NCBI GenBank assembly: GCA_963817525.1
Contig: CAWFOU010000010.1
Span: 1 to 25,523, forward strand
DNA from: an uncultured archaeon
GTDB lineage: Archaea; Thermoproteota; Nitrososphaeria; Nitrososphaerales; Gagatemarchaeaceae
Length of the DNA: 25,523 nucleotides
Direction: 5' to 3'
Shown here: in pieces, positions 4,197 through 22,221 of the stretch
Position numbering within the stretch: position 1 is the stretch's first letter
How the letters are laid out: every line of letters starts with the position of its first letter
The notes under the pieces: model-generated
Seen by the model: the letters and a program-made list of their open reading frames with translations, nothing else
Database searches by the model: none
What the model was told of the DNA's origin: nothing
Made by a program: the position numbers and the translations under genes

Positions 4197-4197
4197 T

Positions 4198-5963: not shown

Positions 5964-5972
5964 GCATACTCT

Positions 5973-6022
5973 CACCACCAAAATGGGACAGGCTTCGGAA
6001 ACACCAAGGACGGGACACAACC
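5973..6022. repeat. Right terminal repeat of element B
   Basis: CACCaccaaaATGGGACAGgcttcggaaaCACCaaggacGGGACACaacc. Confidence 0.75.
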
Positions 6023-6029
6023 CGATTGG

Positions 6030-6080
6030 GACTCTGTCCATCTTCGGGTGTTTTGAAGGGCTGTCATTTTGGGTGGTGAT
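6030..6080. repeat. Left terminal inverted repeat of element C
   Basis: Reverse complement atcaccacccaaaatGACAGcccttcaaaaCACCcgaagATGGACAGagtc matches the right ends apart from G-run shortening. Confidence 0.8.
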
Positions 6081-6116
6081 ACTGTCTTGAGAGTGTGGAT
6101 TCTCCAAGTGAACTCG

Positions 6117-6640: not shown

Positions 6641-6654
6641 GGAAGACAAAGCGA

Positions 6655-6786
6655 TCAACTTTCATCCAGATACTTCTTTATGAGTTCTTGGATTACATCG
6701 TTCTTCTTCCGACCGCCAAAGTTCTGAATGACTTTGATGGAGAAGTCCTTCCCTCTGTCTGGAACATCGATGGTGGTCTTCACCAT
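6655..6786 (-). CDS. Small ribbon-helix-helix-like regulator divergent from the transposase (43 aa, not in ORF track)
   Basis: MVKTTIDVPDRGKDFSIKVIQNFGGRKKNDVIQELIKKYLDES: beta-strand then two helices. Confidence 0.6.
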   Translation of the reverse strand: MVKTTIDVPDRGKDFSIKVIQNFGGRKKNDVIQELIKKYLDES

Positions 6787-6953
6787 CTACGTCGGCTCCT
6801 TGCCGGTGTCCTTCGCATGGTCATGTTTCCTTCTCTGAGGATTAGAAGGCCTAATACTTAAGTGTAATCCCTTCGACAAAAGAAGGGTTATCGACGGGGA
6901 AACGGGAACCTCTATTACCATCGATACTTACCCGTATGGAAGGGGATACAGCG

Positions 6954-8126
6954 ATGGAAACCCAGACTGGCAACAACTCGGACGCTCGGATGACGAGAGG
7001 CTTGGAGATTTCCAAGACCGCGACGATAGCGGAGAACGAGGACGGTAGCTTCACCGTCCCCTCTCAGACGAGCAATTCTTCTTACCAAGTCAGACTTCTC
7101 GGGCGCGACTTGGGTTTGCTCCTGTCCAGACTTTGAGAACCGAGCAGACCAGATAGAGATGTGCAAGCACGCCTTCGCGGTCAAGTTCTGGATTGACGTC
7201 AAGCGTGGAACTGCAAGAGGCACCAGAGCCGAAGGTCTTCGCCGACGACGCTGACCCAATGCGTGAAGTGTGGGAGCATCAGGGTGATTAGGTTCGGGAC
7301 ATACAACGGGAACCAGATTTGGAAGTGCAACGACTGTAAGACCAAGTTCCGCGAGCTCCCTCATCAAGAAGGTCCACTATTCCACCAGAGACGATTACCC
7401 TCACCCTCGACCTCTACTTTTCGGGGCTCTCGCTCCGAAAGATAACGCGCATCGCTGAACGACCACTTTGACATGAACCTCGGCAAGTCCACTGTCTACC
7501 GATGGATTGAGACTTTCGTGCCGAAGATTTCCGAATATGTGAACAGCTTGAAGCCCCAACTCTCGGACACCTGGCACGCGGACGAGCTTTTCGTGAAGAT
7601 GAAGGGCGGAGTGAAGGACACCCAATACAACCAGAAGAGCATGGCCTATCTCTGGAACATCATGGACAGGAAGACGAGGTTCTTGATCGCCTCGCGGCTC
7701 TCCGAGAAGCGCGATTCCATCGGGGCGATGGCCGCATTCAACCGTGCGATTAGGGTTGCACACGGGAGCGAGCCTGAAAGGGTCTTGACCGACGCGGCCC
7801 CTGCATACACCGAAGGGATTAGGCGCACGTTCCAGAACAGGCCCCAGCACATCGCCAAGGTAGGAATCGGGAAGCCACACGCCAATAACAACCGAGTCGA
7901 GAGGTTGAACGGGACGCTCCGCGAGAGGGTGAAGGTTCAGCGCGGTTGGAAGTCCATGAAGACCCAACTCGCGGAAGGCCAGAGAATCCAATACAACTTT
8001 GTGAAGCCTCACATGGCTCTCGATGGCCAGACTCCGGCTCAAGCGGCTGGACTCGCCCCGAAGGGCTGGATGGAGCTATTCACGGAAGCCTTAGAAGCAT
8101 CCGGCTCAACTTCAGGATCACAATGA
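6954..8126 (+). CDS. IS6-family DDE transposase with N-terminal SWIM zinc finger and zinc ribbon (frameshifted 5' half)
   Basis: FTVPSQT...WVCSCPDF...CKHAFAV (SWIM), C.KCGS...WKCNDC (Zn ribbon), HTH (LGKSTVYRWI), then WHADE...LWNIMD...VLTD...NNRVERLN in 7473-8126. Confidence 0.88.
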
Positions 8127-8578
8127 CAGCGAAGCGCGTTGTCATCCTCGCGGTTGCCGCCATCGTCGTAATCTTCGCCGCGACCGGCATATACTACTTG
8201 GTGCTTCCGCCCGGAGCCTCGAAGACCGTGACGATAGTTGCGACGGGCAGCCCTCCTGAAGGAAGCTTGGGCGCTCCCGAACAAGGCTTGGTTTTCGCCC
8301 CAGCGAACTTCACAGTCAGGGAGGGACAGCGTGTCACCCTCGTATTTGTTAATCGCGGAAGCGCTCCCCACGAACTTGTCATCCCTCAATTGGGCGTGGA
8401 CACCGGAGTGGTCAATGTAGGAGCGACGAAAAGCGTCTCCTTTGTCCCCAGCACGGTCGGCACGTTCTTCGATATGCAGCCATGTGGAACACCCGCTGCG
8501 GAATCGGCGGGTCTGCCTGGCTGCAACATTGAGGGATATGGCAACATTGAGGGATATGTGACAGTCTTGTCCCGGTAG
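8123..8578 (+). CDS. Cupredoxin-domain membrane or secreted protein (IS passenger)
   Basis: ATGA overlap with transposase stop; TM, then FAPANFTVREGQRVTLVFVNRGSAPHEL...FVPSTVGTF; stop abuts the IR. Confidence 0.82.
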   Translation: MTAKRVVILAVAAIVVIFAATGIYYLVLPPGASKTVTIVATGSPPEGSLGAPEQGLVFAPANFTVREGQRVTLVFVNRGSAPHELVIPQLGVDTGVVNVGATKSVSFVPSTVGTFFDMQPCGTPAAESAGLPGCNIEGYGNIEGYVTVLSR

Positions 8579-8630
8579 CATCACCGGACATGGGACAGCG
8601 TTTCAAATCACCGGGAGATGGGACAGAACC
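8579..8630. repeat. Right terminal inverted repeat of element C
   Basis: cATCACCGGacATGGGACAGcgtttcaaATCACCGGgagATGGGACAGaacc. Confidence 0.88.
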
Positions 8631-8705: not shown

Positions 8706-10379
8706 ATGGCACAGATTGTTGACATCTCCCTAGACCTAAGGAAGGAAAGTGCAAAGGGTAGATTCATTCGACAGACGCAGTCCATTTGCCCAGACTGCAA
8801 CAAGATACTCCCGGCGATAGTTTTCGAGCGCGATAACAAGGTCTTCATGACCAAGACGTGCCCAGAGCACGGAGAGACAGAGGAGCTATACTTCGGCGAC
8901 TACCAGATGTACGCGAAGTTCGCCCGCTTCTGGAAGGACGGGAAGGGGACCCATGCGCCCAACGTGCCCATGGACGTCTGCTCCTGCCCGGCCAACTGCG
9001 GATTATGCTCCAATCACCTCTCCCACACGGGCCTGTCCAACATCATCATCACGAACAGGTGCGACCTGACGTGCTGGTACTGCTTCTTCTACGTCAAGAA
9101 GGGTCTCGAGGGCGCATACGTCTACGAGCCCACGATGGACCAGGTGAGGGAGATGGCCAGGACGCTCAAGTCCGAGAGGCCAGTCCCAGGTAACTCGGTC
9201 CAGCTCACAGGCGGCGAGCCGACCATCCGCCCGGAGCTCCCGGAGATCATCAGAATGATGCACGAGGAGGGCATCGACCACGTCCAGCTCAACACGAACG
9301 GCATCAACCTTGCGCTAGACCCGTCCCTCGCGGGGCGGCTACACGAGGCAGGTGTCTCCAACCTCTACATGTCGTTCGACGGCACTAGCCCGAAGACAAA
9401 CCCCAAGAACCACTGGGAGGCGCCCTACACGCTCGAGGCGTGCAGGAAGAACAACATCGGCGTCGTTCTCGTCCCGACTGTCATCAAGACTGTAAACGAC
9501 CATGAGCTCGGCTCGATCATCGACTTTGGGCACAAGTATCTCGGCACGGTCCACGCGGTCAACTTCCAACCAGTCTCGCTGACCGGCAGGATGACCAAGA
9601 AGGAGAGGGACAAGTACCGCATCACGATACCCGACTGCATCAAGAGGATCGAGGAGCAGACCAACGGCGACATCACGTCGGACGGCTGGTTCCCAGTCCC
9701 GTCGTGCTCTCCGCTGACGAGCTTCATCGAGGCCTTCACCAAGAAGGAGCAGTATGAGCTCTCGATACACTTCGCGTGCGGCGCGGGGACCTACGTCTTC
9801 GAGGACGCCGAGACAAAGAAGCTCGTGCCTCTGACGAACTTCGTCGACATCCAGGGGCTCATCGAGTATCTGGAGGAGAAGACGGAGGAGATCTACTCAG
9901 GCACCAACAGGTACGTGGTGGCCGGGAAGGTCCTCACCCAGATGTCCCGCTTCGTCAACAAGGAGAAGCAGCCCAAGGGCATGAGCTTCGCGAAGATGAT
10001 CACCAACGCGCTGATCAGGCACGACTACTCGGCCATCGGTGACTTCCACACGAAGAGCATGTTCATCGGCATGATGCACTTCCAAGACAAATATAATCAG
10101 GACGAGGAGAGGCTCCAACGCTGCGACATCCACTACCTCACCCCCGACCTGAGGATCATTCCCTTCTGCTCGTTCAACGTCATCCCCGAGTGGTACAGGG
10201 ACAAGATCCAGCAAAAGTACGGCCTGCCAATCGAGGCCTGGGAAGCGAAGAACGGGAAGAAGCTCGAGGACGGGCTCTACCGTGGCACCCTGAGGCGGGG
10301 CACCCACCACGCGGGCTGCGGCTGCGCGGTCGGCGAGCAGGGCGAGGAAGTCCACATCCAGCCTATCACAGGAACTTAG
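8706..10379 (+). CDS. tes: Tetraether lipid synthase (GDGT-MAS, MJ0619-type radical SAM enzyme)
   Basis: N-terminal rubredoxin-like SICPDC...KTCPEHG, CPANCGLC..H cluster motif, radical SAM CDLTCWYCF, QLTGGEPT, NFQPVSLTGR, HFACG, C-terminal RCDIHY.TPD.RIIPFC. Confidence 0.92.
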   Translation: MAQIVDISLDLRKESAKGRFIRQTQSICPDCNKILPAIVFERDNKVFMTKTCPEHGETEELYFGDYQMYAKFARFWKDGKGTHAPNVPMDVCSCPANCGLCSNHLSHTGLSNIIITNRCDLTCWYCFFYVKKGLEGAYVYEPTMDQVREMARTLKSERPVPGNSVQLTGGEPTIRPELPEIIRMMHEEGIDHVQLNTNGINLALDPSLAGRLHEAGVSNLYMSFDGTSPKTNPKNHWEAPYTLEACRKNNIGVVLVPTVIKTVNDHELGSIIDFGHKYLGTVHAVNFQPVSLTGRMTKKERDKYRITIPDCIKRIEEQTNGDITSDGWFPVPSCSPLTSFIEAFTKKEQYELSIHFACGAGTYVFEDAETKKLVPLTNFVDIQGLIEYLEEKTEEIYSGTNRYVVAGKVLTQMSRFVNKEKQPKGMSFAKMITNALIRHDYSAIGDFHTKSMFIGMMHFQDKYNQDEERLQRCDIHYLTPDLRIIPFCSFNVIPEWYRDKIQQKYGLPIEAWEAKNGKKLEDGLYRGTLRRGTHHAGCGCAVGEQGEEVHIQPITGT

Positions 10380-10440
10380 GGAATCGATACGCCGGTCAAG
10401 TTCGAAACCGGCAGCTTGCACATTATGAATGTGCTAGAAT

Positions 10441-10478
10441 TGATTCTGGAAAGACCGGACCTGGTTTCTCCAGAATCA
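10441..10478. terminator. Hairpin between convergent tes and LAGLIDADG genes
   Basis: TGATTCTGGA ... TCCAGAATCA perfect 10-bp stem. Confidence 0.45.
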
Positions 10479-10505
10479 GCGCATCAAATCAGGCTCTCGC
10501 CTACC

Positions 10506-11693
10506 CTAGGATTTAGAAAAAGAGGGAGGGGCAGGAATGAGATCTCGTCGGATTGCATGTCGAGTTAGCTGCCCGTATCTATAGCTCCCAATGATTGGAT
10601 TGAAGAGAGATAGTCGAACTGCGTCACGTGTTAGGATTCTGACTTGGCTTGGTTGATTTTGTGGATAGGTGTGAGCGTCGAGTCCTAGAGTTTCGAAGAG
10701 TTCTTTGTAAAAGGCGGAGTTCGGGACGCTAGCGATTTCGGCATAGTATCCATGTATATCCACATACCCATCAGAGTCGGCGAGTCCCTGAAGGAATGCT
10801 ATGATTAGACTCCTGGGACACCTCTTCATCCATGCCATGTCGAGTTTGTGAGTGCTGGTTGTCTCTCCTTCCTTCAAACCGAGACAGACCTGGAACGCCC
10901 ACGTAATGACATTGCTCGAGATCGAATTCCATCGAACCACTTTGCCATCCGATGCAATCTGGTGCGACGGGATTCCTACGCACTCCAGCGCCAACTGCAC
11001 GTACCTTAGCACTCTGAAGTTGCTCTCCCTGTGCGTCATCATAGTCGCCATTGACGTCTTGCGGTAGTGTCTTGCCCTGGGCTCGTTGTGGACATACTGC
11101 TTTCCCGCGTCTCCCACCAAGAACCCCAACAAGAACCAGAACAACTCCGCCTTGTGCTCCTGAGCCCACGCGCTCGTCAGTCCGAAGAAACGAAGTGCTT
11201 CGCTCTCCTCACTGACCGGCGGGAACTGCTTCAGGAACTCGAGAATCTCGTCATAGGAGCGGATGCGTTCTGGGACCTGCAGAGTTCTCGGGTAGGGATT
11301 GGTCGGTTTGGGCGTGCGGTCGAATATCCACTTCCGTCCTTCCAGAGGCCTTCCAATTCGCGCAGAGTTGAGGTACATCTGCACGAGGTTCGGGCGCCAG
11401 TTGAAGCCGGAGAGCGTCCTCGAGACTACCGCCTGGTCGATGCGGTGCTTTGATGCGATTGTTTTTTGTTCCTGTCCTTGTGATCTGAGCCTCCACACGT
11501 CCCCGTGCCTTTTCCACTGCGCGATGTCCCTTTCGTCGTAGACGACGTTCCAAAACTCCTCCATGAACTTCAGGTCGTTCCATGACGAGAGCTTCTCACG
11601 AAGCAGCTCTAGCTCATCGGGCGTGTACTTCGGCCAGGGCGTGCGGTCTTTCCATTCTCCCTTGCTTTTTCCGTATCCGCCTTTCCGCATCAA
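10506..11693 (-). CDS. Free-standing double-motif LAGLIDADG homing endonuclease-like protein with N-terminal HTH
   Basis: WFLLGFLVGDAG and AFLQGLADSDGYV motifs about 110 aa apart; HTH-like GQEQKTIASKHRIDQAVVSRTL; no intein splicing motifs. Confidence 0.85.
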   Translation of the reverse strand: MMRKGGYGKSKGEWKDRTPWPKYTPDELELLREKLSSWNDLKFMEEFWNVVYDERDIAQWKRHGDVWRLRSQGQEQKTIASKHRIDQAVVSRTLSGFNWRPNLVQMYLNSARIGRPLEGRKWIFDRTPKPTNPYPRTLQVPERIRSYDEILEFLKQFPPVSEESEALRFFGLTSAWAQEHKAELFWFLLGFLVGDAGKQYVHNEPRARHYRKTSMATMMTHRESNFRVLRYVQLALECVGIPSHQIASDGKVVRWNSISSNVITWAFQVCLGLKEGETTSTHKLDMAWMKRCPRSLIIAFLQGLADSDGYVDIHGYYAEIASVPNSAFYKELFETLGLDAHTYPQNQPSQVRILTRDAVRLSLFNPIIGSYRYGQLTRHAIRRDLIPAPPSFSKS

Positions 11694-11780
11694 TTCTTTT
11701 GCGCATTTCCATATTTAGTCGCCACCTACGTCGGATTGATACCGGAAAACACGCGCACTGACAGTGATGGTAATCTATCC

Positions 11781-11813
11781 TGCGGCTTCAACGTCATCCC
11801 CGAGTGGTACAGG
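11781..11813 (+). repeat. tes 3' remnant 1
   Basis: TTCAACGTCATCCCCGAGTGGTACAGG (11787-11813) is a 27-bp exact copy of 10173-10199 (FNVIPEWYR). Confidence 0.92.
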
Positions 11814-11922
11814 AATTTCCTGGCAATGCGCGAATAGCCTATTCGCATCAGACGACCAGACTGGAGAATCAGCCGGAGGTATCTACGCTTATATCTCCGG
11901 TCCTACTTCTTCGATGACTCGG

Positions 11923-12207
11923 ATGTCGTCGGACGCATCTAAGGAGGAGTCGACGGAGTGGGCGAATCGGGTCTTGGACGCGCGCATCTTCAAAGCGAAA
12001 GGGGTCTCGCCAAACTCTCGTTGGGCAAAGAACTACTCAAAGATGATGCGCGAACCTCTGAAGCCCGAAGAATGGCGCGCATTCCAGGAGAAGCTCAAGG
12101 ACCCCACTTTCGCCGAGGAATGGATGGATAAAGTGATTTCTGGATGGCATCGCCGGAGGACACCGGTCTCCTCAAGGCAACCCTCGAACAGGTCGAAGTC
12201 TCGCTAA
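11923..12207 (+). CDS. Hypothetical small protein A1 (two-gene module, copy 1)
   Basis: CTTATAT box at 11888; C-terminus KLKDPTFAEEWMDKVISGWHRRR resembles 17002-17157. Confidence 0.65.
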   Translation: MSSDASKEESTEWANRVLDARIFKAKGVSPNSRWAKNYSKMMREPLKPEEWRAFQEKLKDPTFAEEWMDKVISGWHRRRTPVSSRQPSNRSKSR

Positions 12208-12332
12208 TTCGCAGGATACCTTTCGCCGCTCTCAGACGCCCGGAAACGTTGTGGGAAGAGTTCGCAATGCTTGACACTGTCCTTGAGTTGACAATGAAGC
12301 TCGCTCTACTATCTGCTCGAGCGCGAGCCTAA
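12144..12332 (+). CDS. Hypothetical small protein B1 (two-gene module, copy 1)
   Basis: Overlaps A1; LEQVE...PETLWEEFAMLDTVLEL resembles the frameshifted ORF at 17150-17318. Confidence 0.6.
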   Translation: MASPEDTGLLKATLEQVEVSLIRRIPFAALRRPETLWEEFAMLDTVLELTMKLALLSARARA

Positions 12333-12367
12333 GGAATAGAATCTAGTCGCGAGAAATGACCGTTGCG

Positions 12368-12424
12368 TCCCCGAGTTGGCGAGCAGGGCGAGGAAGCCAT
12401 ATCCAGCCGATCACCCGGGCCTAG
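12368..12424 (+). repeat. tes 3' remnant 2
   Basis: GGCGAGCAGGGCGAGGAAG-CCATATCCAGCCGATCACCCGGGCCTAG aligns to tes 10332-10379 (GEQGEE.HIQPIT..stop). Confidence 0.9.
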
Positions 12425-12708
12425 TCGGAACGCTCTGTCCCTAGGCTAGGCCTCTCTTGAGACATCTTTGTGCCTGGTCGACGTTAGTTGTGAACAGCGA
12501 ATCGACTGCACCGCTGAAATTGGGATTCCGACCCGTATGGGTTAATAATCTGACGAGAATTTGTAACAACTGCTATATACATCCGAACGCCCACTATCGC
12601 CTATGGCGTTCCCTGCCCACGAAGAGGGGATGGGCGCGGCGAGCGCCATCAACGTCTACGGAATCGTTTCCGCCTCCAGTCGGTTGCATGAGGCGGGAAA
12701 ACTAGCCT

Positions 12709-13716
12709 TTGACTTCAAACTTCCACCAATTTCTCAAGACAACGTCCCCCCGCAAGCGTACGAGTGAATCTCGTTTGGACCGCATCGACATCAAGGTGCT
12801 CGGGGGGCTGTCCCGTGGGACTTCCAGCATTGGAAGCCAACCCGTGTTGCAAGGTGTCTTTGGGAGGATTGCGAAGAGGCTTGTTCTTGACGAAGACACC
12901 GTCAGGAAGCGAGTAGACAGATTGGAATCTGCAGGAATATTTCGAGGATGGCAACTCGTGGTCAATCCGGGCGTTCTGGGGCTCAAATTATACGGCGCCC
13001 AGGTAACGGTTAGTCCGCAGCTGGGAATACAGGACGCAGTCCGCAAGATCATGCTTGTCCAAGGTGTTACATCAATCGCCTGCGAGGTGGTCGATACGCT
13101 CGGTATTGGAATAATCTGCGAAAACGAACTTGTCTTCAGAAATAGGATCGAACTAATCTCAGAGTTGGCGGGGACGAAAGAGTTAACGACATATGCGGTG
13201 AACTACCCACAACCAGAGGTCCAGCTGAGTCGCACGGACTGGCAAGTCATCAATGCGTTCAGACCGAATCCGTTGATTCGATACTCCGAGGTGGCCGACA
13301 AGCTTGGGATTTCAAGCAGGACAGTCCAGAGGAGGCTGAAGAAGCTCGCCGTGAGCAAGGCCATCTTCTTTCGACCAATAATCGATGTCAGTCGCTTTGA
13401 GGGTGCATCGTCAGTCTCTCTCTTTGTGTCCTACGCCTCAGATGAGTTCAAACGCGAGGTTGACCGAAGCATATTCGGAAGATTCGAGGACTACATCCTT
13501 CGGGCTGGATGGGGAAGTGCAAGCCATGGCTATTTCGAGTTCATCATCCCGAACATCCATGTCGTAAAGGAGATTGTCGATTGGACCCGCAGCCTGCGGG
13601 GAGTCAAAGAATTGCGATTGAATCTCAAATACGACAGCCTTAGCCTTTACGAAAACGCGCTGGATGAAATCATTGCCAGGCAAGGTCAAGGCCCGTCGCC
13701 CCGCCGGCCGAACTGA
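12709..13716 (+). CDS. AsnC/Lrp-family transcriptional regulator with two HTH domains
   Basis: LDRIDIKVL...IAKRLVLDEDTVRKRVDRLESAG and LSRTDWQVI...YSEVADKLGISSRTVQRRLKKL. Confidence 0.88.
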   Translation: MTSNFHQFLKTTSPRKRTSESRLDRIDIKVLGGLSRGTSSIGSQPVLQGVFGRIAKRLVLDEDTVRKRVDRLESAGIFRGWQLVVNPGVLGLKLYGAQVTVSPQLGIQDAVRKIMLVQGVTSIACEVVDTLGIGIICENELVFRNRIELISELAGTKELTTYAVNYPQPEVQLSRTDWQVINAFRPNPLIRYSEVADKLGISSRTVQRRLKKLAVSKAIFFRPIIDVSRFEGASSVSLFVSYASDEFKREVDRSIFGRFEDYILRAGWGSASHGYFEFIIPNIHVVKEIVDWTRSLRGVKELRLNLKYDSLSLYENALDEIIARQGQGPSPRRPN

Positions 13717-13968
13717 AAAACTACCATTGGTCTCGTCGGCGCTGCAATGAAGACGGAGGCAGTTCGTATCCCTGCTATAGGCTCGAGTCAGCCTAGAGAG
13801 CCCCCGTGTCGGCGCCCCCCGCCTACTGGGGCTCCATGCGCTAGCACGGATAGCCTGTTCACCTAATCCGAGTCGGGGAATACGAATACCGACCCTTGTC
13901 GTGTCGGAATTCCCTACCATGTCGCGGCGAATGCATAATATCCGATTGCTCGACTTTTTTTATCACGG

Positions 13969-16491
13969 ATGACTAACGTATTACCGAAACGAAACAAGAA
14001 CGCATTTACGAAAAGCATTAAGAAAACATTAAGCAACACATCAATCCGCGCAATCGCACTAAGCCTTCTTTTCGTCGTCTCAGGGATTGGAGCGTCAGTG
14101 CTCCTCAACCCAGCCGCAGCCACGCCCAACACGGCAGCGCCCTCGGCCGCGGCCCCCGTTGCAGCCCAGCCGGCGCTGACGCAGGCGGAGGCGAATTGGG
14201 AGTTCCCGAACGGCAACGCCTTCAACCAGGACTACAACCCCCAAAGCCAGATTAACAGCTCCAACATCCAGTACCTGGGGCTGAGCTGGATCTATCCGTT
14301 GCCCACCCAGCCGACCTCCTTGTCGGCTCTGTCAGCTTTCGGCGGTGACATCGGAATGGCGATTATCATCGCCAACGGCACTGCCTTCGCAACCACGCAG
14401 TTCGACGAGACCATCGCCTTCAACGTGGCCAACGGCGACGTGCTCTGGACCTTCCTCACGCCTCTCGCGGTCAACCAGACCGCAGGCGAGTCCACAGGCC
14501 CGGTCCCGCTGCACGACCACGACGGCAACGAGTGGTTCTCTACCGCGACGTTCGGCTCCGGCGTGTCCGGCCCGACGCTGTGGTTCCAAGGAGAGAACAA
14601 CCACGTCTACGCCATCGACGCCCTCAATGGCAAACAGGAGCTGAACTTCAGCGACTTCACCGGCCTCAACATGGTGGCAGGCAACAACCCGCAGACCATA
14701 TACAACGGAATTGGCGCCTCGAACATCGTCGTCAACCCGACACTGGGCATCCTGGTGTCTGGGCATGACGCCGAATCAGACGCCGACAACGGGAGGGGCT
14801 TCTTCGCGGGATGGAACCTAAACACCAACCCGGTCACCATGAAGTGGATCACCTACGACGTTCCTCCCCAACCAGGGAGCCCAACGGCGTCGCTGAACCC
14901 CTACTTCGACCAGCAGTTGATCGCCAACATGACCACCGCGACCACCTTCTACCCTGGTGAGAACGGCTCTACCAACGGGTACACCACCCCGACGGAAGTG
15001 GCAGGAGGCCTGCTCGTCAACAACAACGACGACATCGTCGTCAACTGGAAGGCGCTGTCTCCGACTCAGCTCAACACAACCCTCTACAACGACTGGGGAC
15101 AGTCCGGCCAGACGGCCCAGTGCCTCGCCATCGACGGCGGCGGCTCTACGGGCTCCACAGGCTCCGCATGGGGCGGCGCTTGGCTCGTGGGCTCTGGCCA
15201 ATCGGCGGGGATGGTCTTCCTAGGGACGAACAACAAGGACCCGTTCACAGGGCCTTGCGACCCAGGACCTGACCTCTGGTCAGCTTCAGTCCTCGGACTC
15301 AACATCACCACCGGGCAGATAGTCTGGGGCTTCCAGGCAACCACGCACGACGTCTGGGACTACGACTGCTCCTGGTACCAAGCACTGGCCAACGTCACCC
15401 TCTCGGGCGTCAACACCGAGGTCATCCTGAAGACGTGCAAGGACGGATACCTCTTCGAGATCAATGCCGTGACTGGCAACCTCATCTGGGCGTGGGACCC
15501 ACCCGCGAACTCAGAGCAGTCAGGACCAAGCAGATGTCCAGTCTGCTACCCGATGAACCCGATGAACGCATCACAGACCGGCATCGACTTCCCATCCGCA
15601 CTCACCAACTGCTACCCAGCATACACCATCGCCTGCGACAGGGGCTCTCAGCCTCCGTTCCTCCAGTGGCCATCTGAACTGGCCGGCTTCGAGGACGAGC
15701 AGGCGTTCGACCCAGCAACCGGGGACATCTACGCCACCTCGCACGTGGTGCCCCTGTACATGGGTTACTTCGGCCTGAACGCGTCCACCTACTTCACCTC
15801 CACGGGTGAAGGAGGCGTGCCGTGTCCGAGCTGCGGAACCCTGTACGACAACGCTACACTCTGGTCAATCAACGCACAGACTGGAGCCGTCAACTGGGAC
15901 CACCAAGTTGCGAATCTGCAGGGATACCGTGGCCAGACCGACGTCAGCGGTAACGTCGTATTCAACGTCTTGTCCTCGGGCGACATCGTCATGACCAACG
16001 CCGCGACAGGCGCACTCATCAGAGACTACTACATCGGCGCGCCGATGGACCAGGGAGTGACGATCGGAGCGTCAGTAAACGGTCAGGAGTACATCCTGAC
16101 GCCGGTAGGGACGTGCAGCATCGAAGCCGTAGGGACGTGCCCTGGCACAACGCCAGGAGACATCGTGGCCCTGAGCCTGCAGAACCTCCCGCCTTCCACC
16201 GCGAGCACTAGCACAACCACAGTGACAGCAACATCCACCACTACAGCGACTTCCACAACGACAGCAGTATCCACGACCACCGCCACGGCATCGGGCGCTA
16301 CCGTCACGGTAACGACTGGAGCCAACGGGCAGACAACCACAGTCACCATGAGCGGAGTGACCTCGACGGTCACCTCCACATCCACAACATCAAGCAGCAA
16401 CACAGCGCTATACGCAGTAGCTATAGTCGCCGTGATCTTCATCATAGCTACGGGCTATCTTGCCATGCGTGGCAGGAAGCCCGCCTCCTAA
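13969..16491 (+). CDS. Membrane-anchored PQQ-dependent dehydrogenase-like beta-propeller protein
   Basis: Signal peptide; NWEFPNGN...YNPQSQINSSNIQYLGLSW, Trp-docking repeats (AFNVANGDVLW, GLNITTGQIVW, EINAVTGNLIW), FQATTHDVWDYD, KTCKDGYLF; S/T stalk and C-terminal TM with basic tail. Confidence 0.9.
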   Translation: MTNVLPKRNKNAFTKSIKKTLSNTSIRAIALSLLFVVSGIGASVLLNPAAATPNTAAPSAAAPVAAQPALTQAEANWEFPNGNAFNQDYNPQSQINSSNIQYLGLSWIYPLPTQPTSLSALSAFGGDIGMAIIIANGTAFATTQFDETIAFNVANGDVLWTFLTPLAVNQTAGESTGPVPLHDHDGNEWFSTATFGSGVSGPTLWFQGENNHVYAIDALNGKQELNFSDFTGLNMVAGNNPQTIYNGIGASNIVVNPTLGILVSGHDAESDADNGRGFFAGWNLNTNPVTMKWITYDVPPQPGSPTASLNPYFDQQLIANMTTATTFYPGENGSTNGYTTPTEVAGGLLVNNNDDIVVNWKALSPTQLNTTLYNDWGQSGQTAQCLAIDGGGSTGSTGSAWGGAWLVGSGQSAGMVFLGTNNKDPFTGPCDPGPDLWSASVLGLNITTGQIVWGFQATTHDVWDYDCSWYQALANVTLSGVNTEVILKTCKDGYLFEINAVTGNLIWAWDPPANSEQSGPSRCPVCYPMNPMNASQTGIDFPSALTNCYPAYTIACDRGSQPPFLQWPSELAGFEDEQAFDPATGDIYATSHVVPLYMGYFGLNASTYFTSTGEGGVPCPSCGTLYDNATLWSINAQTGAVNWDHQVANLQGYRGQTDVSGNVVFNVLSSGDIVMTNAATGALIRDYYIGAPMDQGVTIGASVNGQEYILTPVGTCSIEAVGTCPGTTPGDIVALSLQNLPPSTASTSTTTVTATSTTTATSTTTAVSTTTATASGATVTVTTGANGQTTTVTMSGVTSTVTSTSTTSSSNTALYAVAIVAVIFIIATGYLAMRGRKPAS

Positions 16492-16513
16492 TTTTAGGAG
16501 ATACAACAAACCA

Positions 16514-16551
16514 GGCCCCCCGACCGGGGGCATCTCCCCTTTTTGCTTTTC
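16514..16551 (+). terminator. Hairpin plus T-tract downstream of the PQQ gene
   Basis: GCCCCC-cgacc-GGGGGC followed by CTTTTTGCTTTT. Confidence 0.55.
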
Positions 16552-16695
16552 AAAAACGGCCGCCCGGGCCGGGGCACCCCGCCTTCGTCATCAGAATCGC
16601 TGGGGACCCCGAGGCCCGGGCAACTCCACGGAGTGCTCTATTAAGCTCTTGTCGACAAGCGGAAACGCTCGATGAGCTATGTCAGAGCCTTGCTG

Positions 16696-16913
16696 CCCTT
16701 CCCAACTTCAAGGTCATCCACGAGTGGTACAGGGACAAGATACAGCAAAAGTACGGCCTGCCCATCGAGGCATCGGAAGCGAAGAACGGGAAGAAGCTCG
16801 AGGACGGGCTCTACCGTGGCACTCTAAGGAGGGGCACGCACCACGCTGGCTGCGGCTGCGCTGTGGGCGAGCAGGGCGAGGAAGTCCACATCCAGCCGAT
16901 TTCGGGGACCTAG
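16696..16913 (+). pseudogene. tes 3' remnant 3 (complete last ~70 codons)
   Basis: Colinear with tes 10161-10379; encodes FKVIHEWYRDKIQQKYGLPIE...GEQGEEVHIQPISGT-stop with no start codon. Confidence 0.96.
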
Positions 16914-17001
16914 ACGGGTCGGGCCTCCCAACGCCAGAAGCCTCTCTATTTCCGTCGCTCCGGATGTGCGCTTATATTTCCCCTCCTCTTCTTTACCGAG
17001 A

Positions 17002-17157
17002 ATGAAGCGTTCAGAGCAGGAGCACATTGAGGACCTGTCATACCTCAGGGCCAAGCTCGCGCAGCCTGAACCAGAAATCGATGCGTGGCTAAACGGAATA
17101 GTGGATGCATGGATTGCCACGCGCAGGACCAAGAGGTCGCGCGCCAAGCGTGTCTGA
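17002..17157 (+). CDS. Hypothetical small protein A2 (two-gene module, copy 2)
   Basis: CTTATAT box 31 nt upstream; KLAQPEPEIDAWLNGIVDAWIATRR resembles A1. Confidence 0.65.
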   Translation: MKRSEQEHIEDLSYLRAKLAQPEPEIDAWLNGIVDAWIATRRTKRSRAKRV

Positions 17158-17318
17158 CGAGAACGACAGGACGGAAGTTCGACTGCTGGTCGAGCGGCTA
17201 GAACCGGTGATGCTTTGGAGAGTTGCTACCGCAGCGCGGCTTTCCTCCTGAGACCCTTCCCGACGAGATTCTGCTGTTGGAAAGCGTAACGGTGCTGCGG
17301 AAAGAGCTCAACCCCTGA
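17150..17318 (+). pseudogene. Hypothetical small protein B2 (one extra base between about 17213 and 17246)
   Basis: GTG start overlapping A2 stop; MSDENDRTEVRLLVERLEPVML...PETLPDEILLLESVTVLRKELNP. Confidence 0.55.
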
Positions 17319-17329
17319 ACTATTTTGCA

Positions 17330-17376
17330 AGGGCGAGGAAGTCCACATCGAGCCAGTCGGGAGTGCATCAACCTGA
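17330..17376 (+). repeat. tes 3' remnant 4
   Basis: AGGGCGAGGAAGTCCACATC 20-bp exact match to tes 10339-10358, continuing GEEVHIEPVGSAST-stop. Confidence 0.85.
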
Positions 17377-17425
17377 CTTCGCTAAGGTTCGAATGCGTCA
17401 GGTTGCGCTTGATCTGCTAGGCAGT

Positions 17426-17965
17426 TCACTTGGAGCCAGCGACCAGTGATTCGAATTCGATAACACACAAGTTTTCTGAAACCGTCTCCCTGCGGACCTT
17501 CCCCAAGAGCCTTACAAATATTGCTTCCAGCGCCCCTGCGTAGTATACTGACCAGTTTCTACCCATCTTCTGCCCGACCACTATGATGTGCTTTCTCTCC
17601 TTTACGGTATGCTCGAAGGTGAATCTGCCGCCATAGGCTCCGAGGTTCTTCATCAGCCTGTCAGCCGACTCGACTGACACGGTGGAGTATTCCGCCAACA
17701 GGTTGGGCAAGAACAGCTCACGCCCAGCCCACCTCCCCATCTCACGGGCCTTCTCCTCGCTTTGCTCGGCCATCAGCTTCACCAGGAGCAAAGACGGGAC
17801 CGAGACAAGCCCCCTGTTCGATAAGGCCCTGTCCCACTCAACGTACTTCCTGAGGGCCTTGTTCATGACCTGGCTATTGGAAAGTCTCTCCTCCTTTGCG
17901 ATCTTCTCCATCGCCTCGTCGATGTCGGTCTCGACCCTGAATGTGCGGGCCTTGCTCCTCTTCAA
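17426..17965 (-). CDS. Ribbon-helix-helix protein with C-terminal V4R-like ligand domain (thaumarchaeal paralogue family)
   Basis: RTFRVETDIDEAMEKIAKEERLSNSQVMNKALRKYVEWD...MGRNWSVYY...IEFE. Confidence 0.82.
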   Translation of the reverse strand: MKRSKARTFRVETDIDEAMEKIAKEERLSNSQVMNKALRKYVEWDRALSNRGLVSVPSLLLVKLMAEQSEEKAREMGRWAGRELFLPNLLAEYSTVSVESADRLMKNLGAYGGRFTFEHTVKERKHIIVVGQKMGRNWSVYYAGALEAIFVRLLGKVRRETVSENLCVIEFESLVAGSK

Positions 17966-18504
17966 TCGACCCTCGACGACTTTGGCATGTCGAATTCGAG
18001 CGCCACGAGCTCTTCGGTCATCCTGGACTTGGTGTTAAGACCCAAAGTCTTGCCGAACAGTGATTCAACTACCCCCATGTAGAAGGCGGACCATTTCATT
18101 CCTCCTGAGTGACGGATTGTGATGACGTTCTTCGAATCTGAGGTCACGTGATGGAATTGGAACCTGGCCATATAGCGCGAAATGAGTTTGATGACCTCCA
18201 GAGCGGAGGTCAGCGTCACCTCGCCGGAGATAGACGTCATGAACGGCATCAAGACATCGCTGTCTACTGATTCTCCGAGGCTCCTGGCTTCTTCTAATGT
18301 CTGCTTGTCCATGAGTCTGCCCAAGGTTATGGGGCTTATCACGACCAGGGCCGCTCTCTCAGCAAGCCCGTCCCACTCCACCAATCTCCTCAGAGCTCTC
18401 CCGGCGATGACGTTGACCGATTCTCCTGATTCGTCGGCCATCCGCTTAAGGGCCGCATCGACATCCTCGTCGAGCCTAAGCGTGCGGGTTACGCTCCCTG
18501 ACAC
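17962..18504 (-). CDS. Ribbon-helix-helix plus V4R-like domain protein
   Basis: VTRTLRLDEDVDAALKRMADESGESVNVIAGRALRRLVEWD...IRHSGGMKWSAFY; GTG start chosen (ORF is open to 18552). Confidence 0.82.
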   Translation of the reverse strand: MSGSVTRTLRLDEDVDAALKRMADESGESVNVIAGRALRRLVEWDGLAERAALVVISPITLGRLMDKQTLEEARSLGESVDSDVLMPFMTSISGEVTLTSALEVIKLISRYMARFQFHHVTSDSKNVITIRHSGGMKWSAFYMGVVESLFGKTLGLNTKSRMTEELVALEFDMPKSSRVD

Positions 18505-18621
18505 AGTTTCCTTTCTGGACCAACTTCCGTATATGTATTCGCTTGCGTACAAATGACTCCGCTTGTAAACCTAGAGTACTTCTTGAATGGTCGGCATCCC
18601 AAACGAAGGGAACCAGAAAGC

Positions 18622-19026
18622 ATGACGGACAACCAGAGGAAGGAGGATGTCACCTACGGGGCTGCCAGTCAAGTCATCAAGGCCCTCTTCGACTCGGACA
18701 GGCGCATCCGTTATGGCGCAGTTATCGGCGAAAAAGGAGAAGAAATCGTCGGAGGAATGAGGCCAGGAATCAAGTCGCTCGAATCCGAACGCGAGAGCAG
18801 CAGGCTCAGGATACAGACACTCATAGGCATGGCGATCAACCGGAATTGGAACGAACTGCTCGGAGATGCCGACTACATAATCGTGCATAGAAGCAAGATA
18901 GTCGTCTTCATCTTTCCTCTATCCGGCATGAAGTCGCTGCTAGTGTCTGCCGAGCCAGACTACCCATTGAAGAGGCTGGGCGAAATATCTGACGCTGCCC
19001 AGGCTATCCCGAAAGAGCTGCGGTGA
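18622..19026 (+). CDS. Roadblock/profilin-like (DUF6659-type) protein
   Basis: DRRIRYGAVIGEKGEEIVGGMRPGIKSL...LGDADYIIVHRSKIVVFIFP...LLVSAEP. Confidence 0.8.
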   Translation: MTDNQRKEDVTYGAASQVIKALFDSDRRIRYGAVIGEKGEEIVGGMRPGIKSLESERESSRLRIQTLIGMAINRNWNELLGDADYIIVHRSKIVVFIFPLSGMKSLLVSAEPDYPLKRLGEISDAAQAIPKELR

Positions 19027-19029
19027 CCA

Positions 19030-19728
19030 TTGACCAATGACGAGTTGGTCAGCCAGTCAATCCTGAGCGGGTTGAAGGCTACCGGCCACGAAACTATGCA
19101 ATTGGTCCTCGACGTCTTGCGGACCCGCTATGGATTCACTCTGGAAGACGATGCGAAAGATCCGGTGAGACTTGGAAAAGGACTCAGAGGAATACTCGGA
19201 GGGGCTGGAGCCCGAACGGTCATCGACAGAATCCTCGAAGACTTACCCGATCAAAGTTCTCCTCCGGAGTATTACATCAGATTCATGGATGGGCTGAAGG
19301 CCTACGGGGAAAGCCTATCTTCCAAACCGGACGACGAGGCCGACAGAGGACTTGCGCCCGGGAACGTGCTGAAGCGGCCTAAAGGGGCCTTCCAGGTCCC
19401 ATTGAAGGGGTTCCCGCCTGACTTTACGCAGAAGATGGTTGAAGCGGTAGTCAGAGGACTTTCACCTTTGGGCGACTCAGGGAGAGAGGCGGCCATTTAC
19501 CTCCTAGAGCAGCAGTACAACGTCAGTGTGACAGACGCTTTCACAAATCCAAGGAGTTTTCTTTCAGGCCTAACAGGAATGTTCGGGCTCGGCGCACATT
19601 ATTTGGAATCTTCTATCATAGACGAGATAACCGGCGCATTTGCTTTGTCCGCAAGGCCTGATTCGCTGCCAGTGGCCGTCAGGGAGGCAGGCCGAAAATA
19701 CAAAAAGGCCGGAAAAGGGTCAGAGTAA
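19030..19728 (+). CDS. Protein with two small helical archaeal output-type domains (DUF3227/NitrOD5-like)
   Basis: Two repeats: GLKATG...LRTRYG...DPVRLGKGLRGILG.GARTVI and GLSPLGDSGREAAIYLLEQQY...NPRSFLSGLTGMFGLGAHYLE. Confidence 0.7.
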   Translation: MTNDELVSQSILSGLKATGHETMQLVLDVLRTRYGFTLEDDAKDPVRLGKGLRGILGGAGARTVIDRILEDLPDQSSPPEYYIRFMDGLKAYGESLSSKPDDEADRGLAPGNVLKRPKGAFQVPLKGFPPDFTQKMVEAVVRGLSPLGDSGREAAIYLLEQQYNVSVTDAFTNPRSFLSGLTGMFGLGAHYLESSIIDEITGAFALSARPDSLPVAVREAGRKYKKAGKGSE

Positions 19729-19834
19729 GATAACTCAACTACCGCGTGGTCAATGCAGAGAACCGATTACAGAGTCGACACCCCCGAGCGGGGAAGGTCG
19801 GCTCAGAATCGAGGGCAGTCCAAGGGGTTGGCTT

Positions 19835-20356
19835 CTAGGCCTCAAAACGAGCGATGCAAACCGCGTCAGTGCACTCGAACTTCACCTGCTTTGATAGGAG
19901 ATCGTGTAATATCTCTTTCACCAATCCCTGGTAGAAGTTCGTCCATTTTCGACCTTGATCGTGTCTAAACACGAGAATGTGCACGTTTCCTTCCTGCACG
20001 TCGTCAAATACAAACCTATCCGTGTAGAAGGCGACTCTTTTGAACGTGGAGATGAACGCGGTCGCGGTGACCTCTCCGAAGAGATACTCGGTCAGAGGCC
20101 TGGCGAACTCCCTCGCTGTGAACCTGCCCAGTTCGGTGCACTTGTCGGCGTCGAACTCGTCAATCAGTTTTTTGACCATTATCTCCGGCACTTCCATATA
20201 CCCTATCTTCCTCCCGGGGATATCCCACTCGATCAGCTTCCTCATCGTCCTGTTAATCAAGAAGTTTGTCGTCACCTTATCTTCCCTTGCTCTCCTCTGA
20301 ATCGCCTCGTCCAGGTCAGAGTCCAGCCTCACTGTCCTCGTCCTGGTCTTGGGCAT
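19835..20356 (-). CDS. Ribbon-helix-helix plus V4R-like domain protein (third paralogue)
   Basis: TRTVRLDSDLDEAIQRRAREDKVTTNFLINRTMRKLIEWD...FRHDQGRKWTNFY. Confidence 0.82.
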   Translation of the reverse strand: MPKTRTRTVRLDSDLDEAIQRRAREDKVTTNFLINRTMRKLIEWDIPGRKIGYMEVPEIMVKKLIDEFDADKCTELGRFTAREFARPLTEYLFGEVTATAFISTFKRVAFYTDRFVFDDVQEGNVHILVFRHDQGRKWTNFYQGLVKEILHDLLSKQVKFECTDAVCIARFEA

Positions 20357-20513
20357 CCCCTGTCCGCGTATCAAGCCTTCAATTTACGTGTTCCTTTGTG
20401 CCCTAATGTGTGTATCAGAGTACAAAGTGCGCATCCGACTCGATATCTCACCTGAAGTAGACGGAGCCCACTTAGCCTCCCCCAGATTCAGCTGCACTAG
20501 CCTGGATTGTGCC

Positions 20514-20924
20514 GTGGGGGAACTGATTACGTCGAAGAAGAGGGATGCTGAGAGCGAGATTGCTTATCGAATAGTGAAGGCGACGTTCGAGTCGGACCGG
20601 CGAATCCGATATTGCGCATTGATCGGCGAAAAGGGAGAGGAGCTGGTCGGTGGGATGAGACCTGGGATCAGGCCGCACGAGACCGAACTCGAGAGCAGCA
20701 GGCTCAGGCTGCAGACGCTCGTAGGCATGGCGATGAACAGGAATTGGGACACCCTGCTGGGTGACGCGGACTACATAATAGCTCACAGAAGCAAGGTGGT
20801 GCTCTTCCTCTTCCCTCTTTCCAGTCTAAGGTTGCTTTTGGTTTCAGCCGAGCCAAACTATCCGCTGAGGAAGTTCCGAACTATCCTTCGCATCGTCAAA
20901 GGGCGTCCCGAAAAACTCCGGTGA
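20514..20924 (+). CDS. Roadblock/profilin-like (DUF6659-type) protein, paralogue of 18622-19026
   Basis: FESDRRIRYCALIGEKGEELVGGMRPGI...LLGDADYIIAHRSKVVLFLFP; start uncertain. Confidence 0.8.
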   Translation: MGELITSKKRDAESEIAYRIVKATFESDRRIRYCALIGEKGEELVGGMRPGIRPHETELESSRLRLQTLVGMAMNRNWDTLLGDADYIIAHRSKVVLFLFPLSSLRLLLVSAEPNYPLRKFRTILRIVKGRPEKLR

Positions 20925-20946
20925 TGCCGAGAGCATCAGTGCGACC

Positions 20947-21252
20947 ATGAGCCTACCATCTGAGGAGCTAGTCCGCGACGCCGTGTTGGCGGGGTTGAGG
21001 AAACTGGGCGACGACGTCCCGCGCGTCGTCTTGTACTTCTTGCAGACCGAACGCGGAGTCGCATTGGAGGACTTGGCTGGCGATCCAGCTAGGCTCGGCG
21101 ATGCCCTCAAAGCGGTATTTGGGGAAGCCGGAGCGCGGATTGTCATCGAAAATATCCTGGACGAAGCTGGCAAACATCCGTCTCATCCATCTCGCTATCA
21201 TCGGTTCATGGAAGGCCTGGCATCCTACAAGGAATCTCTCTCGCTCGCCTGA
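20947..21252 (+). CDS. Single-domain DUF3227/NitrOD5-like protein, paralogue of the 19030 N-terminal domain
   Basis: EELVRDAVLAGLRKLG...DPARLGDALKAVFGEAGARIVIENILD...RFMEGLASYKESLS. Confidence 0.75.
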   Translation: MSLPSEELVRDAVLAGLRKLGDDVPRVVLYFLQTERGVALEDLAGDPARLGDALKAVFGEAGARIVIENILDEAGKHPSHPSRYHRFMEGLASYKESLSLA

Positions 21253-21286
21253 GGGGGTTCAGTTCCTCGCGGTAATGGCTCGTAAC

Positions 21287-21331
21287 CGAGCAGGGCGAGC
21301 AAGTCCACATCCGGCCCATCCCAGGGAATAG
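21287..21331 (+). repeat. tes 3' remnant 5
   Basis: CGAGCAGGGCGAGCAAGTCCACATCCGGCCCATCCCAGGGAATAG aligns to tes 10334-10379 (EQGEQVHIRPIPG). Confidence 0.88.
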
Positions 21332-21694
21332 ACATCCCTCGCCCGCCCAAGACCAGCTGCTTCCTGTTGGGCCTCTGGAAAAGGCGTTCGCCACGATTCG
21401 GCGAGAGACTGGGTTTCCCGTCCTCAATGCTTTTCCGTTTGAGGGCCTCCGAGGGCACAATGTCGACCCAATTCACGTAAACTGGCAGACCCCAGGGTGG
21501 CGGAAAATCCGCATCCTCTGGAAGCCATACCTTTGCATGACTAAGGTACGAAACAGTTGATGTAATTACATATAATTATACCTGAGTGATAATTAAGTAT
21601 TCAAGGAGGCCGCCGCTCGCCGAGCTGGCCCCTTCGCAGACTAGCCAGCATGCGGCCGGGTCTTCGCGACCTCGTGCGCTGGCGCCGGGCCTGG

Positions 21695-22221
21695 TCAGCC
21701 CGAGACTACCCTGTAGTCGTCCTCGAGCCTGACGATGTCGGCCTCGTCGAAGTCCCCCTTCGAGACTTCGAGGATCTCCGCGCTCTCTTCCTTGCAGCCG
21801 AGGCGATGGACCATCAACCGAGGGACGACGACGTGCGAGTCCTTCGCGAGGGGCACCTCTTCGAGCTTGCCGCCGCGCTTGAAGATCGCATATGCGCGGC
21901 CGGAGAGACAATACCACTCCTCGGTGCGGTGGCGGTGGTATTGAAGGCTGAGCCGCGACTTTGCGTAGACGTGGATGATCTTCACGGTGAGCGCCTCGCC
22001 GGGCTCGTGCGCGAGGAGCTCGCCCTCCGGGTGGTAGGTCGATCGGAGCTCCTCGAGGAAGCTCGCCTCCCAGGATGGGGTGGGAACCTTTCCCTGAAGA
22101 TAGACCGAGAAGGACCCCCACGGGCGCCGCTCGATTGTGTCGGGCGTCGAGAGTATCGTGCGATTAGCTCGTTCGTTGCTTGAAGACGTTTTTGGTCGCC
22201 CCGGGCAGCTTTTCCAAGCAT
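21695..22221 (-). CDS. Cupin protein, type II mannose-6-phosphate isomerase C-terminal-like (probable frameshift near 22150)
   Basis: In frame upstream of 21985: ERRPWGSF...TVKIIHV...RLSLQYHRHRTEEWYCLSG...HRL...ILEVS.G...EADIVRLEDDY. Confidence 0.82.

Follow-up and report, generated by a model that had tools for sequence, protein, structure and literature searches.

The window analysed here is the whole of contig C10 (25.5 kb; 25,523 nucleotides) of G000, a 15-contig assembly of an uncultured archaeon of the Nitrososphaerales (GCA_963817525.1). It carries an intact gene for tetraether lipid synthase, tes, and, further downstream, a second copy of the 3' end of that gene at 16696-16913, which is called the remnant below. 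The features on which the argument turns are given by window position.

8706 to 10379, plus strand: tes, tetraether lipid synthase, 557 amino acids (aa), intact (NCBIfam, Pfam)
10173 to 10379, plus strand: present tes tail, probably a replacement, codons 490-557 and stop (repeat partner of 16707-16913)
10381 to 11815, no strand assigned: segment of 1435 bp absent from contig C7, bearing an endonuclease gene (C7 passes from the tes stop directly to the counterpart of window 11816)
11816 to 16679, plus strand: block X, shared with C7 at 90.7% identity (collinearity with C7)
16680 to 16695, no strand assigned: junction filler, 16 nt, between block X and the remnant (C7 homology ends at 16679, tes homology begins at 16696-16707)
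16696 to 16913, plus strand: remnant, very probably a displaced former tes tail, codons ~486-557 and stop (blastn, codon comparison, synteny, tree)
16914 to 17318, plus strand: E3, apparently the DNA that originally followed tes, containing a conserved 63-aa open reading frame (ORF) at 16966-17157 (synteny)

The Tes protein scored 690 bits against the NCBIfam equivalog NF045702, above the whole-protein membership cut-off of 450, with residues 23-508 placed on profile positions 1-485/486. It contains the Pfam domains Radical_SAM and Zn_ribbon_HMPTM. The tail past residue 508 lies outside the profile, yet it is conserved in relatives, where the ratio of non-synonymous to synonymous divergence (dN/dS) in the tail is 0.04-0.16. 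Assembly G000 carries tes on three contigs, namely C7 (the main chromosome piece), C10 (the window) and C14, and the Tes protein of the window is identical to the C7 and C14 copies. At the nucleotide level C14 is 99.5% identical to C7 and C10 differs from C7 by 4-12%. Contamination of the bin is 8.75%. The three tes contigs and their distances from C7 indicate that the bin mixes at least two strains.

Comparison of the tes 3' end with the window by blastn paired 10173-10379 with 16707-16913 (207 nt, 90.8% identity, no gap, E 3e-80), and alignment to the tes of a relative extended the homology of the remnant back to 16696. The remnant and the present tail differ at 19 nucleotides in 18 codons, 14 of which are synonymous and four non-synonymous (N>K, P>H, W>S and T>S), and both copies end in a TAG stop. 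A sequence-only reading of this DNA had given the same codon counts, with no indel; our count reproduced all its figures, and the start at 16696 also agreed. By the Nei-Gojobori method (NG86), the 15 differences counted at 45.2 synonymous sites and the 4 at 158.8 non-synonymous sites correspond to a dS of 0.44, a dN of 0.026 and a dN/dS of 0.058, which is far from 1. Neutrality of both copies was rejected (binomial p = 2e-7), as was an in-place duplication that leaves one copy under full constraint and the other free of selection (p = 1.7e-4). Thus, the proposal of that reading that the two tails diverged under purifying selection was supported. The 9% divergence is mostly synonymous because most of it probably arose while both tails were live gene ends in different genomes. 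The four replacements in the remnant are shared by none of 12 relatives and lie at residues invariant in those 12; being private to the remnant, they fit decay after displacement. Its synonymous states are shared with the live tails of relatives in a mixed fashion, 9 of 15 with genome G020. No in-frame start codon in the remnant yields an ORF of at least 80 aa.

The remnant and E3 together (16696-17318) are collinear with the live tes tail and the DNA following its stop codon in two related genomes, G012 (locus L039, 10142-10763) and G020 (locus L040, 8476-9094). Identity over the collinear stretch is 77% overall and 75% over 389-399 nt in the part after the stop. E3 itself matches the DNA right after the tes stop in both genomes (L039 10361-10763 and L040 8692-9094), and tblastn with its 63-aa ORF gave 65-73% identity (E 4e-17 to 9e-16). 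Both genomes are without the 6.5 kb (10173-16695) at tes and represent the empty site; 10173-10379 is the leading segment of the DNA that they lack between tes and E3. Since remnant and flank are collinear with the live tail and flank of these relatives, the remnant appears once to have ended tes. Positions 16696-16913 are thus very probably the native tes 3' end, displaced by an insert that is led by a replacement tail. The sequence-only reading had claimed that the present C-terminus probably came from another strain and displaced the remnant; the direction of displacement is borne out by synteny, and the donor may have been a strain or a mobile cassette. It is by synteny, and not by distance, that the native copy was identified. 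The remnant is 93% identical to the G012 tail (dS 0.28) and the present tail 94.7% (dS 0.30), and the corresponding dS values to G020 are 0.35 and 0.56. The dS of 0.44 between remnant and present tail falls between that of tes in the window and C7 (0.20-0.21) and that of tes in the window and G012 or G020 (0.58-0.59).

Block X contains a small ORF, a short tail remnant, a double helix-turn-helix (HTH) regulator gene (12709-13716) and a PQQ beta-propeller protein gene (13969-16491; Pfam). The block is present in C7, where the 1435-bp endonuclease segment is absent. The same block end is followed in the window by the 16-nt filler and 207 nt of remnant, and in C7 by 89 nt of unmatched filler and the old tail cut to 62 nt. 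Neither filler matched any of the other sequences compared. Along the contig, dS relative to C7 is mosaic, ranging from 0.02 to 0.40. The propeller protein, of 840 aa with a hydrophobic C-terminal end, belongs to a multicopy family of surface proteins with at least nine further matches (72-89% nucleotide identity) on C1, C7 and C8; its dS relative to C7 is 0.40, twice that of tes.

The segment between the present tail and block X bears two features.

10506 to 11693, minus strand: gene for a predicted free-standing LAGLIDADG homing endonuclease, 395 aa, called ORF395 (motifs, fold)
11780 to 11813, plus strand: orphan tail start, C-G-F-N-V-I-P-E-W-Y-R, beyond the endonuclease gene as seen from tes (repeat match)

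ORF395 consists of an N-terminal helical/HTH part and a two-motif core. The motifs LLGFLVGD195AGK and FLQGLADSD308GYV (FLQGLADSDGYV) each contain the catalytic acidic residue, and G194, D195, K198, S307, D308 and G309 are invariant across 12 homologs. The score against Pfam LAGLIDADG_3 was 21.1 bits for a cut-off of 22.5 (E 3.9e-4), and five of the 12 homologs matched this family, the best with an E of 6e-8. The AlphaFold2 (AF2) model had a predicted local distance difference test score (pLDDT) of 87.1 and a predicted template-modelling score (pTM) of 0.85. The best Foldseek match of the model was I-DmoI (probability 1.00, target-normalised template-modelling (TM) score 0.69-0.70, residues ~180-390); other top matches were the PI-SceI endonuclease domain, I-Tsp061I and WhiA, a non-cleaving relative. 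By its model, ORF395 is of the monomeric two-motif LAGLIDADG type, with a predicted pseudo-dimeric alpha-beta-beta-alpha-beta-beta-alpha fold. It resembles the archaeal, monomeric I-DmoI (2vs7, 1b24) in predicted fold and in its two catalytic motifs. However, sequence identity between the two is 13-15%, I-DmoI is intron-encoded in rRNA whereas ORF395 is free-standing, and ORF395 has an extra N-terminal domain of ~170 residues. A sequence search of the PDB with ORF395 gave no match, and a profile search gave only designed armadillo repeats, which were judged spurious. PHROGs and NCBIfam likewise gave no family for it. In the orphan, 27 of 27 nucleotides at 11787-11813 are identical to 10173-10199, and 31 of 34 are identical over 10166-10199. 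The orphan adjoins block X where C7 has the tes stop codon.

The wider occurrence of these features was examined in Nitrososphaerota/Thaumarchaeota from soil and peat, using 80 genome loci around tes, of which 76 were usable for counts of genes and remnants, and 80 metagenome loci with 3-kb flanks, taken from at least 401 metagenome stretches. Homologs of ORF395 stand antisense directly after tes at 10 of the 76 genome loci and 14 of the 80 metagenome loci, and members of the family occur in Nitrososphaerota, in DPANN lineages and elsewhere. This patchy distribution and the 1435-bp difference from C7 suggest that ORF395 may act as a homing enzyme on endonuclease-free tes. At locus L090, a 179-nt displaced tes tail begins 37 nt past the start of the endonuclease gene. 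In the alignment of this tail, 43 of 182 nt differ, with five aligned residues changed, a one-codon deletion, one new stop and the original stop lost. Remnants abut the far side of the endonuclease gene both in the window (11780-11813) and in L090.

Two paralogs of the endonuclease gene are found elsewhere in G000.

G000:C1:194160-197456 (L120 247-3544), antisense: endonuclease paralog, 452 aa, directly after aEF-1alpha
G000:C1:939662-940927 (L121 1267-2532): third paralog, 421 aa, convergent with the gene for ribosomal protein L7Ae

The aEF-1alpha locus has the order live tail, paralog gene, a 115-aa acidic ORF and a displaced tail ~2 kb downstream. The displaced tail comprises the last 24 codons at 87% identity, with six synonymous and four non-synonymous codon differences and the stop lost. 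In genomes G012 and G006, the ~3.6-kb loci around aEF-1alpha are free of any endonuclease gene; the live tail there continues straight into the DNA that follows the remnant in G000, and these are clean empty sites. For L7Ae, no duplicated gene end was found in genome G000 by blastn or tblastn.

Shorter pieces of the tes end are also present in the window.

12375 to 12414, plus strand: short tail-end remnant in block X, ending in QPITRA and a stop, with a frameshift (90% to 10329-10369, E 1e-9)
17325 to 17363, plus strand: older short tail-end remnant, ending in EPVGSAST and a stop (repeat match, translation)
21287 to 21325, plus strand: outermost short tail-end remnant, with RPIPG near its end (90% to 10334-10372, E 1e-9)

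The first stands at the same place in C7 and the last is common to C7, while the unit of E3 plus short remnant recurs in C7, L039, L040 and L041. It had been suggested from the letters alone that the short remnants record earlier tes alleles. This is plausible, but the piece at 12375-12414 need not ever have ended tes in this lineage; it lies inside the inserted block and so arrived as a passenger. A further tail piece on C7 (76346-76464, 31 kb upstream of tes) ends in QPITRA and a stop like that at 12375-12414. The 3.9 kb between the two outer short remnants (17364-21286) is replaced in C7 by ~1.6 kb of different DNA and behaves like a strain-variable cassette; it contains three ribbon-helix-helix (Arc/CopG-like) genes, DUF6659 paralogs (18679-18973 and 20577-20871, 77%) and NitrOD5-like ORFs. 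Resemblance among the small ORFs that precede the short remnants was considered, and blastn gave no support for it.

Arrays of tail remnants, with up to seven tail pieces, occur at 9 of the 76 genome loci and 9 of the 80 metagenome loci. The 5' boundaries of the remnants fall into classes at codon 465 (five remnants), codons 490-494 (four), codon 502 and, often, codons ~530-543. A unit of spacer plus remnant occurs in different surroundings in L039 (10780-12059) and L041 (3698-4961), at 84% identity over 1280 nt. Several tail pieces also lie at ~441-489 kb of G018:C3 (L170-L172), among genes for histidine and branched-chain amino acids. The 48 kb between the two long tail pieces there was considered as an integrated element and rejected, because his, ilv, 2-oxoacid dehydrogenase and TFIIB genes lie in it.

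The displacement itself very probably ran as follows. About 6.5 kb (10173-16695) entered at tes codon 486-490, and the native end was no longer translated. With its first 207 nt the insert supplied a new tail, derived from a related allele, and it is because this tail was complete and in frame that tes stayed intact. The old tail was stranded ahead of the flank that it had always preceded and then decayed, as in the four amino-acid changes. As the trigger we tentatively propose the family of free-standing LAGLIDADG endonucleases found downstream of tes, a candidate with a little less than an even chance of being right. Such an enzyme would make a double-strand break in the tes tail, after which the broken end would invade a donor allele within tes and copy the donor tail, the endonuclease gene and cargo. 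The copied end would then be joined, without homology and over a short filler, to the opposite end of the break. Because that end has the cut site as its start, remnants would be expected to start at about codon 490. Repeated rounds would build an array of tail remnants, and a second such round, later than the first, seems to have left the endonuclease gene with the orphan at 11780-11813.

A number of observations weigh against this account, the first group concerning the tail itself. In a tail tree of 27 rows and 207 columns, from which C14 was omitted as a 99.5% duplicate of C7 (the body tree had 17 rows), the remnant was sister to the live tail of G012 (support 85/82, 93% identity) and apart from the tail of its own contig, a point in favour of displacement. 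The branching around the window tail, however, was without firm order. In the approximately unbiased (AU) test, neither a clade of remnant and window tail (p 0.075) nor one of remnant, window and C7 tails (p 0.198) was rejected. With a non-significant AU test and no firm order, phylogeny alone decides nothing: the tail tree, proposed together with a body tree in the sequence-only reading, did place the remnant beside the G012 tail, but an in-genome clade was left standing. Sliding identity to C7, the nearest strain, shows no step near 10161-10173, where a recombination breakpoint was expected, because C7 carries the same new tail. The present tail is 97.1% identical to C7 and the tes body 96.1%, so that the tail is as near to C7 as the body is and a foreign origin is invisible in distances. 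No live allele near either tail was found above 91-93% in the 80 genome loci, the best in the 80 metagenome loci was 90.3%, and metagenome contigs held 0 exact copies of a 33-mer taken from the remnant. In addition, the remnant has four private replacements where 16.5 would be expected on the tes clock had it been dead before the window and C7 split (Poisson 3e-4). However, dS relative to C7 is mosaic along the contig and the junctions of the two strains differ, so that the displacement may be younger than that split, or may have happened independently in the two strains.

The second group concerns the enzyme. Between the endonuclease gene and the remnant at 16696-16913 stand 4.9 kb of block X, and C7 has that block without the gene. 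Among the genome loci, three have both endonuclease and remnant, six a remnant only, seven an endonuclease only and 60 neither (Fisher p 0.09, no association); the corresponding counts for the metagenome loci, within their 3-kb flanks, are 0, 9, 14 and 57. The remnant arrays of G012, G014, G018, G022 and G009 hold no endonuclease homolog, and flanking direct repeats were found at only 1 of 44 further loci of the endonuclease family. Also, the several classes of 5' boundary mean that one enzyme with one cut site would be insufficient.

Some of these points are better accommodated if cassettes are exchanged by ordinary homologous recombination, with no site-specific enzyme, which we regard as possible though rather doubtful. 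After a first remnant has formed, live tail, cargo and remnant make up a unit bounded by tail homology. When such DNA arrives from another strain, its left arm would recombine in tes and the donor remnant, as right arm, with the live tail of the recipient, whose tail would become a remnant and take over the 5' boundary of the donor remnant. The first remnant of all would come from homology-facilitated illegitimate recombination. Clustered boundaries would then be expected in arrays most of which have neither integrase nor endonuclease, and the missing association between endonuclease and remnants across loci would need no explanation. The spacer-remnant unit found in different surroundings in L039 and L041, the older remnant (12375-12414) carried by the inserted block itself and the mosaic dS relative to C7 (0.02-0.40), as in a recombining population, are consistent with such exchange. 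However, the fillers of 16 nt in the window and 89 nt in C7, together with remnants of differing length after the same block end, resemble end joining more than a clean homologous crossover. Exchange also leaves unexplained the choice of tes and aEF-1alpha and the remnants that abut endonuclease genes.

Serial site-specific integration at an attachment (att) site in the tes 3' end, with the old tail as attR and the integrases lost or off the contig, is unlikely. Its appeal lies in the tandem arrays with few sharp boundary classes, in the ribbon-helix-helix and HTH genes between the remnants, which are typical of cryptic elements, and in precedent from the same phylum. Thaumarchaeota elements integrate in the 3'-distal parts of protein genes (14 of 68 elements), in tandem arrays too, and their att sites are generally short, with one 13-bp example (PMC6563490). 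As at tes, a conserved gene 3' end is used, the gene is kept whole by element sequence and the site is reused. Unlike those elements, no integrase or casposase was found here, the genome-wide search covering the tyrosine-recombinase family only, and the repeated segment is 207-280 nt long with a remnant length that varies by strain. The search for that family (PF00589), which matched 14 of 14 reference genomes as a control, found none on C10 or within 50 kb of the tes arrays of G000, G012, G014, G018 and G009. A Pfam scan of 24 window ORFs found no recombinase except DDE fragments of insertion sequence (IS) type upstream of tes. Further, the block holds a multicopy surface-protein gene of chromosomal type and an older remnant, and one block end is followed by remnants of unequal length in the window and C7. 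The main text of PMC6563490 does not name tes as a target ('radical SAM' occurs 0 times). As for tRNA genes as targets, none lies within the window.

That the remnant is an in-genome tandem duplicate of the tes tail decaying neutrally is very improbable. The clade that it implies survived the AU test on 207 columns (p 0.075, or 0.198 with C7), and no external allele closer than 91-93% was found. Against this, 15 of the 19 differences are synonymous where 36% would be expected with one copy constrained (p 1.7e-4), and the dS of 0.44 between the copies exceeds the 0.20-0.21 of tes in the window and C7. Moreover, it is the remnant that keeps the flank of the live tail in relatives, and the present tail that is joined to DNA they lack.

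An assembly chimera of two strain variants of the tes region, which three tes contigs and 8.75% contamination might suggest, as strain mixtures can yield chimeras, can be set aside as extremely improbable, because zero-mismatch Logan contigs span all four critical junctions, C7 and C14 keep the order block X, remnant, E3, and relatives have comparable arrays at 9 of 76 genome loci and 9 of 80 metagenome loci. The Logan contigs, from four public soil runs of one study that may be the source campaign of the assembly, cover 10340-10549, 11706-11861, 16589-16750 and 16868-17232, so the junctions are not an artefact of the G000 assembly; depth gaps in these contigs were given no evidential weight.

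The proposed displacement by an endonuclease has parallels in known systems. In T4-type phages, free-standing homing endonucleases cause intron-less homing and marker exclusion, in which an endonuclease-free allele is cut and the gene is copied in with its flanks. ORF395 is similarly a free-standing endonuclease gene beside a conserved gene. In crosses of such phages, homology is available on both sides and no gene end is duplicated, whereas here one side was apparently joined without homology.

Closer are the mORFs of fungal mitochondria. PMC3630166 describes LAGLIDADG or GIY-YIG genes that enter the 3' part of a gene with a foreign in-frame C-terminus and leave the native one downstream, as in atp6 of Allomyces macrogynus and atp6, atp9, cox2 and nad3 of Glomus sp.; inserted and native C-termini differ mainly at synonymous sites (PMC3630166). 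This layout is shared by the aEF-1alpha locus of G000, by L090 and by window 10173-11813, where only the 34-nt orphan remains. It differs from that of 16696-16913, where block X intervenes before the endonuclease gene. The present case also differs from mORFs in lying on an archaeal chromosome and not in an organelle, and in that ORF395 is separate, antisense (convergent) and has an extra N-terminal HTH part, whereas mORFs are fused in phase. In addition, the insert here is 6.5 kb with cargo genes, the copy of the sister strain is without the endonuclease gene, and events are serial, with arrays of up to seven tail pieces. Replacement of a gene 3' end by incoming DNA, with the old end left behind, is thus already on record in accounts of integrase elements in this phylum (PMC6563490) and of mORFs. 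New are tes as a target, an archaeal chromosome with a free-standing, antisense, HTH-bearing LAGLIDADG gene, aEF-1alpha as a second case and arrays without a recombinase. In literature searches, supplementary tables excluded, neither an account of insertions recurring at tes nor one of an archaeal free-standing LAGLIDADG gene that displaces gene ends was found.

Several other observations were made in the window. Upstream of tes, 3186-8601 is ~5.4 kb of DNA where C7 has ~1 kb; it holds three transposase fragments of the IS6/IS240-type DDE class (3197-3568, 4261-4572 and 7473-8126) and a 162-nt repeat at 99% identity (4251-4412 and 7631-7792), and may be a composite transposon. The gene for a peptidase A4 family protein (1618-3180) contains imperfect repeats of 12/33/39 nt at 2404-2670 (eight copies, 108-nt register, 60-72%) and a 270-nt internal duplication (2620-2889 and 2905-3174, 77%). 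A 177-aa ORF at 21650-22183 differs from C7 by three synonymous and eight non-synonymous changes (dS 0.024, ratio ~0.95). Its neighbours are much more distant from C7, and this contrast may reflect a recent exchange or relaxed constraint.

In practical terms, tail remnants of this kind are prone to be mis-called as small genes or taken for assembly error, and tes tails should be used with caution as phylogenetic markers. ORF395 and the tes tail near codon 490 form a concrete candidate pair of enzyme and target. It is conceivable, although we consider it doubtful, that the 3' ends of tes and aEF-1alpha in soil Nitrososphaerota serve as recombinase-free sites of cassette acquisition, at which an endonuclease would cut, donor tail and cargo would be copied in, and the stranded tails would act as portable homology for moving tail-cargo-tail cassettes. 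Such sites would be the archaeal chromosomal counterpart of mORFs and would also build flexible genomic islands. If the displacement by endonuclease is true, endonuclease genes that carry a spare gene end, so far seen in fungal mitochondria, would extend to archaeal chromosomes, and an essential lipid-synthesis gene of soil archaea would anchor a growing, strain-variable island whose history is legible in its discarded ends.

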